From NCBI GenBank assembly GCA_047947115.1, contig CP170459.1, positions 5,280,001 through 5,344,000 of the forward strand: 64,000 bases of DNA, written 5' to 3'. Made by a program: the position numbers and the translations under genes. This document shows, one piece after another, positions 17,966-41,664 of this stretch (positions are counted from its first letter, which is position 1; each line of letters opens with the position of its first letter). The notes under the pieces were generated by a model, which was given only the letters and a program-made list of their open reading frames with translations, searched no databases and was not told the origin of the DNA. The stretch comes from Verrucomicrobiota bacterium. GTDB lineage: Bacteria; Verrucomicrobiota; Verrucomicrobiia; Limisphaerales; AAA164-E04.

Positions 17966-20900
17966 TTACGGACGGCTGTTTCGTTTTTGACGCAAGGTCA
18001 TCTCCCCGACCCAACGGGTGTTGTAGGCATCCATCCACTCAGTGTTCAAATCTTTCGGATACGGTTGACGACCGTATTGTTGATCATCCATACCATGCCA
18101 AGGCATGGGGCCCACGGTCCAACCCTTGGCCACATGAAAATCAGCATCCTTGTCCCAACCGGACGAGAAGAAGTAGAAGTCCCGTTCCAGTCCGGTTTCC
18201 TTTTGCGGAATCTGGTTGGCTGCAAATTTCAGGGTCAATTCATCGCCACCGTTCAACAGAGCGAGAGCATTGTCTTTTGAATCAATCAAAGGCGACACAT
18301 CGCCATAACGCGTGCACCATCCTGAAGGAGTGATCAACCAGCTAGGCGCAAAATCCACTTTGGCGTAATCAGGTGTCAATGGTTTCCCCCAGACGCGTTC
18401 CTCGTATGCGCTGAACCCACGCCAATGCAGGTCGGTCTCGGTGGGTGTCATCAGATGAACATGGGTATTCGCCTCACCGACCGCTTGCATGAGTTGAATA
18501 CGATCCCAATGAATCTCAAATGCCATGGAAAGTTGCAACCGAAGAGGACCGGATGGAAGTTTCCCGGCCAGATCCACGACGATGGTTTTGGTTTTGCCCG
18601 CAGGCGCGCCCACGGTGACGTCCAGTGGTCGCCACTCTCCGGAAACATCCTGAATTTTCAAGGTTGGAAAAGGAAATGGCAAATCTGAATGATGGGACGC
18701 GCCAATATTGGCCATGCCTCCGCCGAAGTGCAACCATCCGGTCATGACCAGCGCCCAGGGTTGATCCCCGTCGATTTCGCCGAAATCCAGATCAATGGCA
18801 TAAGGTTCGGCCCACCCCCGCAATTGAGGCGCCTGCAACGCCACAGGGGAAGCCCTGTGCCGGTCGATCGCCTGAAGCGCTTCAGTGAGGTCTTCGCCAT
18901 CATTACGAGTGGCAGATATCACTGAACGTACATGACCATAGGTGTGCAGTTCGTGTTGAGGAAAGGGTGGACCAGGAACCAGTTTGCCGGTGGTGTGCAC
19001 CTCTGTTCCGGCAGGGTGATCGACGGCAGCCAGCTTGGCTTCGTCCAGATACAGCACTTCACGCAGTTCTTCGGTCAGTTGCAGGACATGATGTCCTTCT
19101 TTTGAGGGAAACGTTTGTTCATCGCCCAGCCAAACCCATTCATCCGTATCCGCAGGAATGTATACATTTTCAGCAACCGGCAATCCAAGAGGAGCCGCTC
19201 CGAGCAAATCGGTGACAAAACGATAACGCTCACCATCCCATGCATAGAGATAGGGACAGGAGCCGGTCGGCATTTCCAGTTCGAACAAAACCAGACTGGA
19301 GCAGGAATCGATCTCGTAATCCACCTGAGTGATGGTATCCGACCAGTGCGGATCGATGGAGTCCACCTTGGTGCGTTTGCCGAGTCCGATTTCGAAGGGC
19401 AGTTCGTGCAGAGTCCGGGCCAAGCGCAGACCACCCGCTGTCAGCTCGACTTTAACCCCGAGACCGCTGGGATTGGATCGACTGCCTTCCATACGGATCT
19501 TCATCATGGTATTGGCATTCCCTCCTTGATTTCGGAGAATACGGATGGATTGGTCAGCCAAAGTAACCAGCAGATCGGAATCACAATCACCATCGAAGTC
19601 ACCTTTGGAAATGGATTGAATGTCACCAAGATTGAGCTCGGTCAACCCGATCGCAGTGGTCGATTCGGCAAAACCTTCGAGACCACGGTTGCGCCACATT
19701 CTGAACACCCCGCCCCCATAAATGGACACATCCAACCAACCATCGTTATCATAATCCAACAACTTCACCGCTGATGGAGCGGCATCCAAAGCGATGGAAA
19801 CCGGTTTTTCATCGCCCTGCAATCGGATCTGAAGACCTTCAGCGGTAAGAAAGACCACATCCATTCGGAGATCGTTGTTCAAATCCCCCACGGCCAGGGT
19901 CCGTGCCTGAGGCCAATCGGAACTGGCCTCGGCCAGTTTCATCGGAGCGCCCCGTTGTTTAAGATACAGCTGACTAGCCTGGTTTTCGAAGGTCACCAAC
20001 AGGTCGGCCAGATCATTTCCGTCCCAATCCTCCAACACGAAATCGCTCACCCCGGACAATTCGGTGGGAAGGTTGGTATGGGTGGTTTCGAGGTTGAATG
20101 AAAAGGTTCCCATATTCCGGTGGAACAAAAGGGATTTGTTGGTGGAACCGATGGCAATCAGATCCAGTTTCCCGGTCACATCAAAATCAGTCAGACGCCC
20201 TTTCACCGCGTGCAAAGGAGACAGGCGCGAGAACATGGAGGAATCGGACAGCATACCATTGGGAGAAACCTGGAACACCTGAGCACCTTTGTCGGAAAGC
20301 AAAATGGCGTCCTCCTGTTGCCCGGTGCGCATCGATCCCTGGTGTTGAAGGTCTCCGACCAGGCATTGGCTGTAGTTCGCATCGGGCAGGAGCGGCACGG
20401 GAAAACCGGCTGGTTGAAACACACCTTCCTTTTGGACCAGCAACTTGAATCCCTGGTCTTTTTCACGCACCAACAGATCAAGTTGATCATCATGTTCGAT
20501 GTCCAACACACCGACCGGCCCGAGCAAACTGCCGGCCTGTTCGCCAAGAAGATCGTTTGTGGCATCCTCAAAGCGAACAGCGATTCCTTCGGCATCGGGT
20601 TGTTCCAACTGGAACGGCGCAATGGCTTCGGTGTAGATACATTTTTCGGTGACTGATGGATCGGCGCTCAGCGGGTTGTTGGCCACCACTTCCTGGTGTT
20701 TCTCCATCATTTTTTCGGCATCTTCCTGCCGTTGCATGCGGATGTAGGTCTGACTCAGGTTGTAATAAGCGGAGGGATGTTCCGGATCAAACTGCACCAC
20801 TTCTGCAAACTGCTGAGCCGCCTGTTCCCACTGCCCCAGCCCCTGATGAGCGCGGCCGAGCTGGTAGCTGACGGCATTGATGGTCTGGTCGATTTGTTTG

Positions 20901-21364
20901 GCAATCTGCAATGATTGTACGGCCTCTTCGAACTGGCCCAGGCGCACATGGGCGCATCCGTTTAAATAATGGGCGGCGGCGGAATTTGAATTCAGTTTCA
21001 GGGCCGCAGCAGTTTGAACCATCACATCTTCAGCCCGGTTCATAAGCAACAGCGCATTGGCGAGGTTCAGGCGCGCATCCAAATCGCCCGGGTGCAATTC
21101 GACCACTTTCTGAAATTGTTCAGCCGCTTTTTCGGCTCCGCCCACCCCTTGATCGAGTAAATTTTTACCGGATTGCATCAATTCCATGAAGGCATTGGCC
21201 GAGTCTTGAGCGGAGGACACAGATCTGCCTGGTTCGTTCTCCTTGATTTTTTTGGTGGGCAGATAAAAAACGGTAAACATGACCAACACCACACCAAACA
21301 AAAGGAGAACAAACACAGCCGCTGGAACTTTGCGGGCGGAAGTATTTCCGGAATTCGAACTCAT
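17966..21364 (-). CDS. TPR + FG-GAP/VCBS + ASPIC/UnbV (CRTAC1-like) protein
   Basis: N-terminal TM, TPRs, DLNNDLRMD/DYDNDGWLD/DFDGDCDSD repeats, SNPSGLGVKV, SCPYLYAWDG C-terminal domain. Confidence 0.85.
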   Translation of the reverse strand: MSSNSGNTSARKVPAAVFVLLLFGVVLVMFTVFYLPTKKIKENEPGRSVSSAQDSANAFMELMQSGKNLLDQGVGGAEKAAEQFQKVVELHPGDLDARLNLANALLLMNRAEDVMVQTAAALKLNSNSAAAHYLNGCAHVRLGQFEEAVQSLQIAKQIDQTINAVSYQLGRAHQGLGQWEQAAQQFAEVVQFDPEHPSAYYNLSQTYIRMQRQEDAEKMMEKHQEVVANNPLSADPSVTEKCIYTEAIAPFQLEQPDAEGIAVRFEDATNDLLGEQAGSLLGPVGVLDIEHDDQLDLLVREKDQGFKLLVQKEGVFQPAGFPVPLLPDANYSQCLVGDLQHQGSMRTGQQEDAILLSDKGAQVFQVSPNGMLSDSSMFSRLSPLHAVKGRLTDFDVTGKLDLIAIGSTNKSLLFHRNMGTFSFNLETTHTNLPTELSGVSDFVLEDWDGNDLADLLVTFENQASQLYLKQRGAPMKLAEASSDWPQARTLAVGDLNNDLRMDVVFLTAEGLQIRLQGDEKPVSIALDAAPSAVKLLDYDNDGWLDVSIYGGGVFRMWRNRGLEGFAESTTAIGLTELNLGDIQSISKGDFDGDCDSDLLVTLADQSIRILRNQGGNANTMMKIRMEGSRSNPSGLGVKVELTAGGLRLARTLHELPFEIGLGKRTKVDSIDPHWSDTITQVDYEIDSCSSLVLFELEMPTGSCPYLYAWDGERYRFVTDLLGAAPLGLPVAENVYIPADTDEWVWLGDEQTFPSKEGHHVLQLTEELREVLYLDEAKLAAVDHPAGTEVHTTGKLVPGPPFPQHELHTYGHVRSVISATRNDGEDLTEALQAIDRHRASPVALQAPQLRGWAEPYAIDLDFGEIDGDQPWALVMTGWLHFGGGMANIGASHHSDLPFPFPTLKIQDVSGEWRPLDVTVGAPAGKTKTIVVDLAGKLPSGPLRLQLSMAFEIHWDRIQLMQAVGEANTHVHLMTPTETDLHWRGFSAYEERVWGKPLTPDYAKVDFAPSWLITPSGWCTRYGDVSPLIDSKDNALALLNGGDELTLKFAANQIPQKETGLERDFYFFSSGWDKDADFHVAKGWTVGPMPWHGMDDQQYGRQPYPKDLNTEWMDAYNTRWVGEMTLRQKRNSRP

Positions 21365-38430: not shown

Positions 38431-38562
38431 AACCGCAGATTGTGCAGATGATCGCAGATTTAAGTAACGAAAAACTTAGCAGTATGATCCTATCAGAGCA
38501 GCCCCCAAGCTCACGAACAACTCTCCAGATATATTTCTAAACATCTGCGTTAATCTGCGGTT
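38431..38562. repeat. Inverted clusters of short GCAGAT repeats
   Basis: GCAGAT at 38435, 38444 and 38454; ATCTGC at 38543 and 38553; outer AACCGCAGATT/AATCTGCGGTT inverted pair. Confidence 0.6.
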
Positions 38563-38571
38563 AATAAATCA

Positions 38572-39552
38572 ATGAACACGCCCCCCCCCTACCCGGATGC
38601 TCCTGCTCAGCGGACGCAATGGATTCGAAGCCTGCGGAAAAAAATCGCGCGCCCAAGCGAAGCATCACAACCGGCCATACTACTCGAAACCGAGCCGGAC
38701 CGGTATGGACGCCCCATACAAACTGCAACCATCTTTCTAATTAACCGCGAGTGCCCCTGGACCTGCGTGATGTGCGATCTCTGGCAACACACCACCGCCA
38801 AGCCTCTCCCCACCGGACACGTCCCCCGTCAAATCGAACAAGCCATCGCCCAACTAACATCAAGGACCGCCGAACCCATCCGCCACATCAAACTCTACAA
38901 TAGCGGAAGTTTCTTTGATGTAGGCGCGATTCCATTGGACGATTACGCTTCTATAGCTGGCCTGCTGGATGAATTCGATCGGGTCATTGTGGAATGCCAT
39001 CCAAAACTGATAGGCGCTCACACATTGGAGTTTGCAAACATGCTCCAACCCAAACTGGAAATCGCCATGGGATTGGAAACCGCCAGTGACGACATTCTCC
39101 AACGTATGAACAAACGATTCACACTCTCCGATTATCAGCAGGCCTGCACGTTGCTGAACGAACACTCGATCGATCATCGGGCCTTTGTCATGATCCAACC
39201 ACCCTTTGTCCACCCAAACCAGACACAGGAACTTTGTTTAAAATCCGTTCAAACAGCCTTTGAATGTGGAGCCGCATGCGTTGCCATCATCCCCACCCGC
39301 ATCACAACCGGAGCCATGGAGGCCTTGCGTCAAACCGGAGATCTTCACCCACTTACCCTAAAACAGGTGGAATTCTGTTTCGACGCGGCGCTGAATTTAA
39401 ACCTCGGGCGCGTATGGTTGGACCTCTGGGATCTGGAACACCTACAAACCTGCCCCACATGCTTCGAACGCCGAAAGAACCGCATTGAAACAATGAACGC
39501 CACTCAGTCGATACTCCCAAAAACAACCTGCACCACATGCCAGCCAGGATAG
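38572..39552 (+). CDS. Radical SAM protein (TIGR01210/RaSEA-like)
   Basis: CPWTCVMC cluster motif, IKLYNSGSFFD, VIVECHP, EIAMGLET, C-terminal CPTC and CTTC. Confidence 0.85.
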   Translation: MNTPPPYPDAPAQRTQWIRSLRKKIARPSEASQPAILLETEPDRYGRPIQTATIFLINRECPWTCVMCDLWQHTTAKPLPTGHVPRQIEQAIAQLTSRTAEPIRHIKLYNSGSFFDVGAIPLDDYASIAGLLDEFDRVIVECHPKLIGAHTLEFANMLQPKLEIAMGLETASDDILQRMNKRFTLSDYQQACTLLNEHSIDHRAFVMIQPPFVHPNQTQELCLKSVQTAFECGAACVAIIPTRITTGAMEALRQTGDLHPLTLKQVEFCFDAALNLNLGRVWLDLWDLEHLQTCPTCFERRKNRIETMNATQSILPKTTCTTCQPG

Positions 39553-39560
39553 ACAAAACC

Positions 39561-41126
39561 ATGTATGACGTCGCAGTGATGGGCGCCGGATTCGGCGGAG
39601 CCCTGACCGCGCTGGTGGCCGCCCAAAACGGGTGTAAGGTGCTGCTCATTGAAAAGGGAAGTCACCCGCGCATCGTCATTGGCGAATCCACGACTCCACT
39701 CACCAACTTGATGTTGGAAGAAATCGCCCGGGACTTTAACCTTCCGTTCCTTCTCGATTTCACTCAATGGGGAAAATGGAAAAGCGCCCATCCGGACATA
39801 CGTGTCGGTCTGAAGCGAGGCTTCGGCTTTTACAATCACTGCAAGACACCCACCGCCAAGCCACCGGATTTGTGGGACCGGGAATTGATGGTTGCAGCCA
39901 GTCCCAATCAACAAATCGCCGACACACATTGGTGGCGTGAGGACTGGGACAACTACCTGACGAACCAGGCCATCCAACACGGGGTGACCTACATGGAACA
40001 TAGCGAGATCGAACATTTTGAAGAAACGCCCGACTGCATCCGACTTGGTATTCGTCAAGCCGGAGAACAAATACAAATTAATGCCCGTTCAGTCATCGAT
40101 GCTTCCGGCGGAAAATCCGGAGTCGCACAATGGCTCGGTATTGAATCCCTGCCCCTTGCTCATACCCCGGCGAGCTTCAGCGTTTATGGCCACTTCGAAA
40201 ACGTCAATCCCTGGAAAGGATGTTCAACGGATGCGATGGATTCCGCCCCTCCTTATCCCCCCAACAAGGCGGCGGTCCATCACCTGATCCATGGCGGATG
40301 GGTTTGGAGCCTGGAATTTGATCATGGACCGGTCAGTGCCGGTGCGGTGTTAACAGATGCCACCCACGCAAACATCAAATCCGAATCTGCTGAAACAATC
40401 TGGCAATACATCCTCGAGCAACACCCGCGCTTAAAGGAGTGCTTTCACAAAGCTGAATCCATGTACCCCATGCGAAAAATCGAACGTCTCGGATACCGCA
40501 TGGAACGTATGCATGGAGACCGGTGGATCATGCTGCCATCGGCTGCGGGTTTTGTGGATCCGCTCCTGTCCACCGGATTCCCACTAACCCTTCAAGGCAT
40601 CCAACGTCTCGGCGAAGCCCTCCGACCGGAAACACTCCGTGGAAGCGGCCCGATCCAAGCGTTCCCGACCATCGCGGAGAAATCCCAACTGGAACTTTCG
40701 ATCTGCGATCAATTGATCGGCACCCTGTTCGCAACCATGGATCCATTCCGTCACTTCGCCGCGACAACCATGCTCTACTTTGCAGCGGTCAGCTATACCG
40801 AAACGGCCTGGCGACTCGGCAAAAAACACCTGGCCCCCGGCTTTCTTTTCAGCGAAAACCCCGAACAACTAAACACCCTGACAACAGCGTTGAAACACAT
40901 TCAAACAATCCAGAAAGAAAACACTTCTGACGATGACAAACGGGCATCCATCCAAAACATCATCACAAGCACCATCGAACCCTTCAACGTCATCGGACTC
41001 GATCCAAGTGCAACCACACCCTGGTTCCCTGCGGACATGTCTCCTCTCTTCAAAAACGCGAACAAACTCAAATCCACACCAGAAGAAATCCAATCCATGC
41101 TCCATCAATTCGGATTAACATTTTAA
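39561..41126 (+). CDS. Flavin-dependent halogenase-like oxidoreductase
   Basis: GAGFGG, IGESTTP, LKRGFGF, GGWVWSL, FVDPLLSTG; ATG 8 nt after the radical SAM stop. Confidence 0.8.
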   Translation: MYDVAVMGAGFGGALTALVAAQNGCKVLLIEKGSHPRIVIGESTTPLTNLMLEEIARDFNLPFLLDFTQWGKWKSAHPDIRVGLKRGFGFYNHCKTPTAKPPDLWDRELMVAASPNQQIADTHWWREDWDNYLTNQAIQHGVTYMEHSEIEHFEETPDCIRLGIRQAGEQIQINARSVIDASGGKSGVAQWLGIESLPLAHTPASFSVYGHFENVNPWKGCSTDAMDSAPPYPPNKAAVHHLIHGGWVWSLEFDHGPVSAGAVLTDATHANIKSESAETIWQYILEQHPRLKECFHKAESMYPMRKIERLGYRMERMHGDRWIMLPSAAGFVDPLLSTGFPLTLQGIQRLGEALRPETLRGSGPIQAFPTIAEKSQLELSICDQLIGTLFATMDPFRHFAATTMLYFAAVSYTETAWRLGKKHLAPGFLFSENPEQLNTLTTALKHIQTIQKENTSDDDKRASIQNIITSTIEPFNVIGLDPSATTPWFPADMSPLFKNANKLKSTPEEIQSMLHQFGLTF

Positions 41127-41136
41127 ATGACTGGCA

Positions 41137-41664
41137 CAGGTAGGACGTGCCGTCCCTGGCGCGTCACCTTGTGGTTTGCATAACTCAAGTTAATTTCCGT
41201 TTCGGGAAGCCCAAGGCGGTCGAACACCCCTCATCCGCGTAGCTGTCGCTAGCGGGACGGATCGAGATCCACGCAGTCGCGGAACAGGCTGATCCGATCT
41301 ACCCAACGTTCCCAACAGGTAGGACGTGCCGTCCCTGGCGCGTCACCTTGTGGCTTGCATAACTCAAGTTGATTTACATTTCGGGAAGCCCAAGGCATTC
41401 GAACACCCCTCATCCGCGTAGCTGCGCTAGCGGGACGGATCGAGATCCACGCAGTCGCGGGACAGGCTGATCCGATCTACCTGCAGCAGCCCTCCGAGTG
41501 GAGCGTGGCGTCTCGGCGCGCAACCCTTGTGGTTTCCATCCCCTGCTATTCACCCACCATAGGAAAACCCTACAGCATCCAACACTCCACCATCCGCGTA
41601 GCATTCGCCAGCGGGCCGGATCGGGATCCATGCAGTCGCGGGACAAGCTGCCACGCTCTACCTG
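41137..41664. repeat. Array of three ~167-bp GTAG-type REP-doublet units
   Basis: Near-identical units at 41137-41303 and 41316-41481 (period 179), plus a diverged third unit at ~41498-41664 sharing CATCCGCGTAGC...GCAGTCGCGG. Confidence 0.9.

Follow-up and report, generated by a model that had tools for sequence, protein, structure and literature searches.

The window analysed here is a stretch of 64,000 nucleotides (C1:5280001–5344000) from a Verrucomicrobiota genome that is a single contig and 95.8% complete; its closest labelled relatives are from Verrucomicrobiota (90% identity) and Pedosphaera (47%), which suggests a host of the Pedosphaerales type. The window carries two neighbouring genes separated by 8 nt (Table 1). 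Gene 1 is predicted to encode a RaSEA-like radical SAM enzyme with CxxxCxxC (C61, C65 and C68), KLYNSGSFFD (residues 107–116), GLET (167–170) and two C-terminal CxxC pairs (C294/C297 and C320/C323), and gene 2 a flavin-dependent halogenase-like protein with GxGxxG, K85, WVWSL (247–251) and FVDPLLSTG (331–339). The original prediction listed the pair, its gap and these motifs, and all of them are present in the two open reading frames.

Table 1. Positions of the genes and repeats discussed in the text, numbered within the window.
Feature	Position	Strand	Description
RaSEA-like radical SAM gene (gene 1)	38572..39552	+	326 aa; TIGR01210, predicted structure, conservation
PltM/CtcP-type flavin-dependent halogenase-like gene (gene 2)	39561..41126	+	521 aa from ATG at 39561
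TPR-propeller-ASPIC protein (GSCP-motif protein)	17966..21364	-	1132 aa, 17 kb upstream of pair; ORF, Pfam
Intergenic hairpin with inverted ends	38431..38562	.	z -3.0; small dispersed family, outside system
Three copies of ~180-bp dispersed repeat	41136..41662	.	Outside system

The pair had also been described as bracketed by repeats, which is literally true but not meaningful, as the upstream and downstream repeats belong to separate dispersed families that are unrelated to each other, and are not the two ends of one mobile element. The upstream hairpin has nine short look-alikes elsewhere in the genome by blastn, and the downstream repeat, which is palindrome-rich, has 75 blastn matches in the genome (self-matches included), is matched by metatranscriptome contigs from many other places and gave no match in Rfam. 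A mobile element or island was considered and excluded by the unrelated flanking repeats, the normal GC content of the pair (0.52–0.54, the same as the window) and the presence of an identical upstream neighbour, a GNAT gene, in closely related genomes. No phage link was found in viral contigs or phage records, and a promoter and terminator scan performed at chance level. Parts of the region occur in 20 metatranscriptome runs (estuary, seawater and similar), only one of which holds half of its words or more. In run X1, parts of both genes are represented by contigs, one of which crosses the junction (39417–39795); these contigs are compatible with transcription, with the strand not readable from the contigs.

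Identity of the two enzymes

The best NCBIfam model for gene 1 is TIGR01210, which is matched by all 80 aligned homologues (best E-value 9e-36). The original prediction was right that this is the nearest model, but membership of the RaSEA family does not follow, as gene 1, at 93.9 bits, falls short of the cut-off of 212.15. Placement in another characterised radical SAM family had been raised alongside the prediction; the next nearest, MnmL/YtqA, does not hold either, as its model TIGR01212 gives 20.1 bits, below its membership cut-off of 180, and is matched weakly by 28 of the 80 homologues. Judged by these scores, the gene 1 family is best placed as a bacterial sister of RaSEA, outside RaSEA proper. 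It is large, with 4338 proteins found at E ≤ 0.001; at E ≤ 1e-30, clustering at 50% identity gives 588 clusters, and archaeal proteins may be among those counted here.

Residues C61, C65 and C68 show no variation in the alignment (n = 80), and the four C-terminal cysteines are retained in 74, 74, 73 and 67 rows, the missing ones being mostly gaps in rows that are cut short. Homologues labelled as planctomycete (L040, L041, L043, L044 and L045) stop at about query position 287, apparently short of all four C-terminal cysteines. The structure of gene 1 is predicted with a pLDDT of 96 and, by structure comparison, is modelled as a radical SAM partial TIM barrel with CxxxCxxC. Its top structural neighbour is queuine lyase (Z 16.8, rmsd 3.4, 218 aligned), closely followed by MqnE (Z 16.1) and biotin synthase (Z 15.9) with no clear winner, and a sequence search found no relative of gene 1 among solved structures.

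The assignment of gene 2 to the flavin-dependent halogenase fold was borne out. It scores 41.5 against Pfam Trp_halogenase (cut-off 21), and its best solved relatives are PltM (E 1e-39) and the tetracycline 7-halogenase (E 6e-38). The alignment is free of gaps up to K85, which falls on the catalytic K87 of PltM; in the available part of the PltM study, K87A is inactive and the mutagenesis primer matches the K87 context (PMC6424973). Lys85 and W247 are present in all 86 aligned sequences, W249 in 81 (Tyr in the other five), and the final position of the WxWxI region is Leu, not Ile, in every one. The P, S and G of the F-x-x-P-x-x-S-x-G motif are likewise found in 86 of 86, and the F in 63. The alignments to PltM and CtcP end at residue 357–396 of 521, and gene 2 scores below every curated NCBIfam cut-off shown, with 69.4 bits for QhpG (cut-off 240), 40 for LodB (400) and 34.6 for GoxB (400). 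A halogenase-like identity for gene 2 is well supported by these comparisons.

A remote ligase and an exported propeller protein

The pair was expected to be conserved elsewhere, and it is, across phyla. No more than 400 bp downstream of the radical SAM gene, the halogenase gene follows in 42 of the 49 GTDB loci with room for it, and in 51 of 64 such loci in a metagenome set made up of the best 80 of at least 576 confirmed loci. Directly upstream of the radical SAM gene there is commonly a third gene, for a ligase (36 of 48 loci with room; 59 of 63 in the best-80 metagenome set), and the order ligase, radical SAM, halogenase was seen in 30 of 45 GTDB loci and 38 of 51 loci of the best-80 set with room on both sides. 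The ligase and radical SAM genes occur without the halogenase at 3 GTDB loci and 10 of the best-80 set, and the radical SAM and halogenase genes without the ligase at 9 and 2, respectively. By title, the records of carriers belong to Verrucomicrobiota, Acidobacteriota, Gemmatimonadota, Planctomycetota and Chthonomonadales. A contig labelled Bifidobacterium (L047) has the pair at about 40% identity and is probably mis-binned. Eight longer, fusion-like proteins were found, each a single sequence and most with out-of-frame linkers or tails, so that they are probably frameshift errors and not natural fusions; L033, P0126 and a radical SAM-propeller protein, P0220, are kept as candidate fusions.

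In the host genome the ligase gene lies 404 kb from the pair (C1:4913536–4914867). An amidotransferase-like further partner had been anticipated, which was right in kind, but the gene found is distant and encodes an AsnB-like ligase without the cysteine of that class. Its PP-loop is intact and its PP-loop synthetase domain is recognised by Pfam (48 bits) and by AsnB structures (E 3e-7). None of positions 1–3 is a Cys, and with this catalytic N-terminal residue absent the protein fails the test for a glutamine-hydrolysing asparagine synthetase; a homologue at another locus (L022) scores 31.7 against TIGR01536, below the cut-off of 267.1. Lacking Cys1 and a glutaminase, the ligase would therefore need another nitrogen donor. 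It shares the synthetase domain with asparagine synthetase B but only residues ~160–300 align, and it has invariant motifs of its own. Beta-lactam synthetase and CarA are AsnB relatives that also lack the cysteine. The median identity among ligases is 63%, as against 43% and 39% for the other two enzymes. The gene directly upstream of the ligase (L063 11028–12365, C1 ~4.915 Mb) reads as transposase-like and may be connected with the splitting of the operon in the host lineage, and the separation may be older than this lineage, since relatives also have the ligase apart.

Another gene linked to the enzymes encodes the GSCP-motif protein (Table 1), which consists of a hydrophobic N-terminal anchor, TPR, an FG-GAP propeller, an ASPIC-like region and a conserved C-terminal domain that opens with the GSCP motif, its Ser-Cys-Pro without variation in 54 of 54. 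A second copy is encoded at C1:1.00 Mb. The predicted fold of the GSCP domain (pLDDT 86) includes a galactose-binding-type (CBM32-like) jelly roll (Z about 10, rmsd about 3, 120–135 aligned), which suggests a binding module and not a catalytic one; for this domain Foldseek returned only low-TM matches, and Atlas look-alikes were without names. A GSCP-propeller gene is found inside 17 of 52 radical SAM loci and inside 16 of the best 80 of at least 576 metagenome loci, and for loci of at least 12 kb these counts are 15 of 35 and 13 of 23 (drawn in part from the same best 80 of at least 576). ASPIC/UnbV domains are matched 26 times in the host genome, the proteins being about 500–1300 aa long, and a haem motif is absent from all 22 ASPIC proteins inspected. 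Genomes may hold up to about 40 copies of the ASPIC/UnbV family, and to our knowledge these CRTAC1-like propellers have no known function.

Other neighbours recur less widely. Further CRTAC1-like propellers are found at 36 of 143 clustered loci, and an RnfD-like membrane protein, which we take to be UnbU, at 25 of 143 (Pfam 27.4, slightly under the cut-off). A NapH-like membrane ferredoxin, a YtkA-like protein and a membrane protein of ~195 aa recur beside the enzymes at mostly acidobacterial loci (14–15 of the 143 for the NapH-like/YtkA group; the set was noted at L008, L015, L019, L024, L025, L028, L029, L031, L032, L035, L036, L038, L039, L048, L049 and L051). Searches of the host genome gave neither the RnfD-like gene nor the NapH/YtkA genes. 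An aliphatic-sulfonate-type ABC transporter adjoins the system in a minority of loci (L014, L037, L052, L066, L084, L102 and L136) and is a possible import or export route. No recurring neighbour for an aromatic precursor, transporter or flavin reductase was seen beside the enzymes in the loci compared, and the single Flavin_Reduct match in the host genome is far from them.

Co-inheritance was examined mainly in 121 genomes of the host's order, each at least 90% complete, in which we found the radical SAM gene in 45, the ligase in 45, the GSCP domain in 49 and the halogenase in 39. The radical SAM gene and the ligase occur together in 44 genomes and singly in 2 (44/46), the radical SAM gene and the GSCP propeller together in 44 and singly in 6 (44/50), and the radical SAM gene and the halogenase together in 37 and singly in 10 (37/47), as against 32 and 43 (32/75) for a control, an unrelated propeller gene from the window. 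All four genes are present in 35 of the 121 genomes and none in 71. The ligase is found somewhere in 44 of the 45 carriers of the radical SAM gene and the halogenase is missing from 8, so that the prediction of the pair as a functional unit is not supported: of all the members the halogenase is the one most readily dispensed with, and the ligase and propeller track the radical SAM gene more closely. A second set of 41 closer relatives, overlapping in part with the first, contains 31 carriers (ligase in 29, GSCP in 30, halogenase in 26) and 10 non-carriers (0, 2 and 0, respectively), and among 150 genomes of other orders the radical SAM gene was found in none and the GSCP domain in 2. Where a partner is not adjacent, it is usually elsewhere in the genome, as seen for GSCP in 9 of 10 hand-picked genomes, mostly of other phyla, and for the ligase in 5 of 5, two of them Verrucomicrobiota. 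The GSCP propeller occurs without the enzymes in 5 of the 121 genomes, in genomes G011 and G014, and in 2 of the 150. With up to 45 candidates scored, ASPIC/UnbV matches have a median of 14 and a minimum of 4 in the 45 carriers, and a median of 0 in the 76 non-carriers (49 with none, 15 with at least 4 and 8 with at least 10). The distribution of the system is patchy, even within families. These tallies overstate independence and certainty because they come from kin genomes within one order and use a single control gene, and more independent evidence comes from the adjacency seen in separate phyla.

Possible function of the system

Each enzyme comes from a known superfamily, and the overall logic resembles ArcS–RaSEA, the archaeosine system of Euryarchaeota, which likewise joins a nitrogen-attaching enzyme to a small Elp3-like radical SAM enzyme. 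It differs in that gene 1 scores under half the TIGR01210 cut-off, the partner here is an AsnB-like ATP pyrophosphatase and not ArcS, and the halogenase and exported partner are extra. As far as the accessible parts of the reports go, RaSEA removes the carbon skeleton of an amino acid attached by ArcS (PMC11298593) and MnmL that of one attached by MnmEG (10.64898/2026.05.18.725915; 10.1101/2023.12.21.572861), although the exact role of MnmL is described there as not fully understood (10.1101/2023.12.21.572861). The succession of MnmEG and MnmL/YtqA/YhcC, in which an amino acid is attached and then radically trimmed, is like our proposal but has other partners and acts on tRNA U34. Gene 2 keeps the flavin and halide-site motifs of PltM, a phloroglucinol halogenase, and CtcP, but differs in the region towards the C-terminus that defines the substrate, in the Leu for Ile in WxWxI and in having no polyketide context; the nearest solved relatives take free phenolics, according to the available part of PMC6424973.

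Genes 1 and 2 are co-inherited with the ligase and propeller. Our preferred reading, which we put forward tentatively and rate somewhat short of an even chance, is that the three enzymes make a small, optionally halogenated aromatic amide, exported to the propeller and its ASPIC/UnbV relatives. The ligase would activate a carboxylic acid by adenylation and couple it to the amino group of lysine, glycine or another amino acid. The radical SAM enzyme, modelled on the action of RaSEA after ArcS, would then abstract a hydrogen from the attached amino acid and break the C–N bond, leaving the nitrogen behind as a primary amide. The flavoprotein would chlorinate or brominate an electron-rich ring via Lys85, a step omitted by about one carrier in five, and the product would leave the cytoplasm and be used by the propeller proteins as cofactor or ligand. 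We infer the course from acid to amino-acid amide to primary amide because RaSEA and MnmL both strip a previously attached amino acid; against this, both of these characterised relatives act on tRNA and not on small molecules. A broader proposal is that the enzymes make an organic cofactor or ligand for ASPIC/UnbV propellers in general, comparable to the cytoplasmic synthesis of PQQ for propeller enzymes of the periplasm, with the GSCP protein as dedicated receptor or loader and nitrogen introduced by ArcS/RaSEA-like attach-and-trim chemistry acting away from tRNA; it is speculative and on balance unlikely.

The close tie with an exported propeller could also mean that the three enzymes modify a protein, likeliest the GSCP propeller or another ASPIC/UnbV protein, and build a protein-derived cofactor in the manner of QhpD/QhpG or LodB/GoxB. 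These maturases also combine a radical SAM enzyme with a halogenase-fold flavoprotein beside beta-propeller proteins, and the Qhp gene set is one that accompanies such proteins. The invariant Ser-Cys-Pro and the scores of gene 2 against QhpG, LodB and GoxB fit this idea, but those scores are far below the cut-offs and PltM and CtcP are much closer. The presumed targets have anchor or signal-like N-termini and the enzymes have none, no twin-arginine motif was flagged in the 22 ASPIC proteins of the host genome (start positions approximate), no conserved small precursor or precursor subunit was found among 397 short ORFs flanking 132 loci, and the ligase is extra to these systems. We consider protein modification improbable. 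Modification of a bacterial tRNA or nucleoside, with an amino acid placed on a base by the ligase, trimmed by the radical enzyme and decorated by the flavoprotein, seems doubtful as well. RaSEA and MnmL are both tRNA enzymes, the queuine lyase match tops the structural neighbours (tied with MqnE and biotin synthase), the ligase is strongly conserved, and the genome has one tgt (a single TGT match) and one queA. However, PF17884, which we take to be the ArcS-linked domain, was not found in this nearly complete genome (as a control, the profile matched in three euryarchaea only), nor were QueC and QueF, so this is not archaeosine synthesis; together with a PTPS-family gene, tgt and queA without QueC/QueF suggest queuosine precursor salvage or an unrecognised route. 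A tRNA function also sits poorly with the patchy distribution, leaves the tracking of an exported protein unexplained, and has no recurring tRNA-modification neighbour at the loci.

Two further alternatives concern the roles of the paired genes themselves. The flavoprotein might be a hydroxylase, or might cleave C–N bonds with O2 in place of the radical enzyme, following the precedent of MnmC1 and MnmL in the accessible part of 10.64898/2026.05.18.725915. The constant Leu in WxWxI and the scores below all curated NCBIfam cut-offs shown would agree with this, but Lys85 is invariant and in register with PltM K87, and the ligase and flavoprotein clearly occur without the radical enzyme in none of the 121 genomes (of the candidate exceptions, G036 has a radical SAM fragment at a contig end and G242 is also without the ligase); we regard it as quite unlikely. 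The pathway originally envisaged, in which radical cleavage and halogenation form a stand-alone two-enzyme route, gains from the pair staying adjacent when the ligase moves, both in the host genome and at 9 of 45 GTDB loci, but the near-constant ligase and the absence of the halogenase from 8 of 45 carriers make it very improbable.

As had been proposed, no described pathway for the pair was found in the open literature, nor any description of the system, most subscription papers being outside this scope. The visible part of one report (10.64898/2026.08.03.742642) concerns a different halogenase-radical SAM cluster, with an adenylation enzyme and P450s. Two radical SAM matches at 25% identity lie on Streptomyces plasmids, and the one inspected is in a different context. 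On plasmid pFRL5 (L165 11983–18641), a distant radical SAM relative (25%) is accompanied by a P450, a serine hydroxymethyltransferase, a glycosyltransferase and a carbamoyltransferase in a cluster that is apparently uncharacterised.

Expressing genes 1 and 2 alone would probably yield nothing, since the remote ligase, 404 kb from them, is likely to be required. Gene 2 would represent a new clade of halogenases that is common among uncultured bacteria of soil and sea. If the preferred reading of an exported aromatic amide is right, RaSEA-type chemistry would extend beyond the tRNA of archaea to a bacterial system that is widespread and attaches nitrogen with a different enzyme. The co-inheritance of the enzymes with one ASPIC/UnbV protein and with expansions of its family offers a testable handle on this large family of exported propellers.
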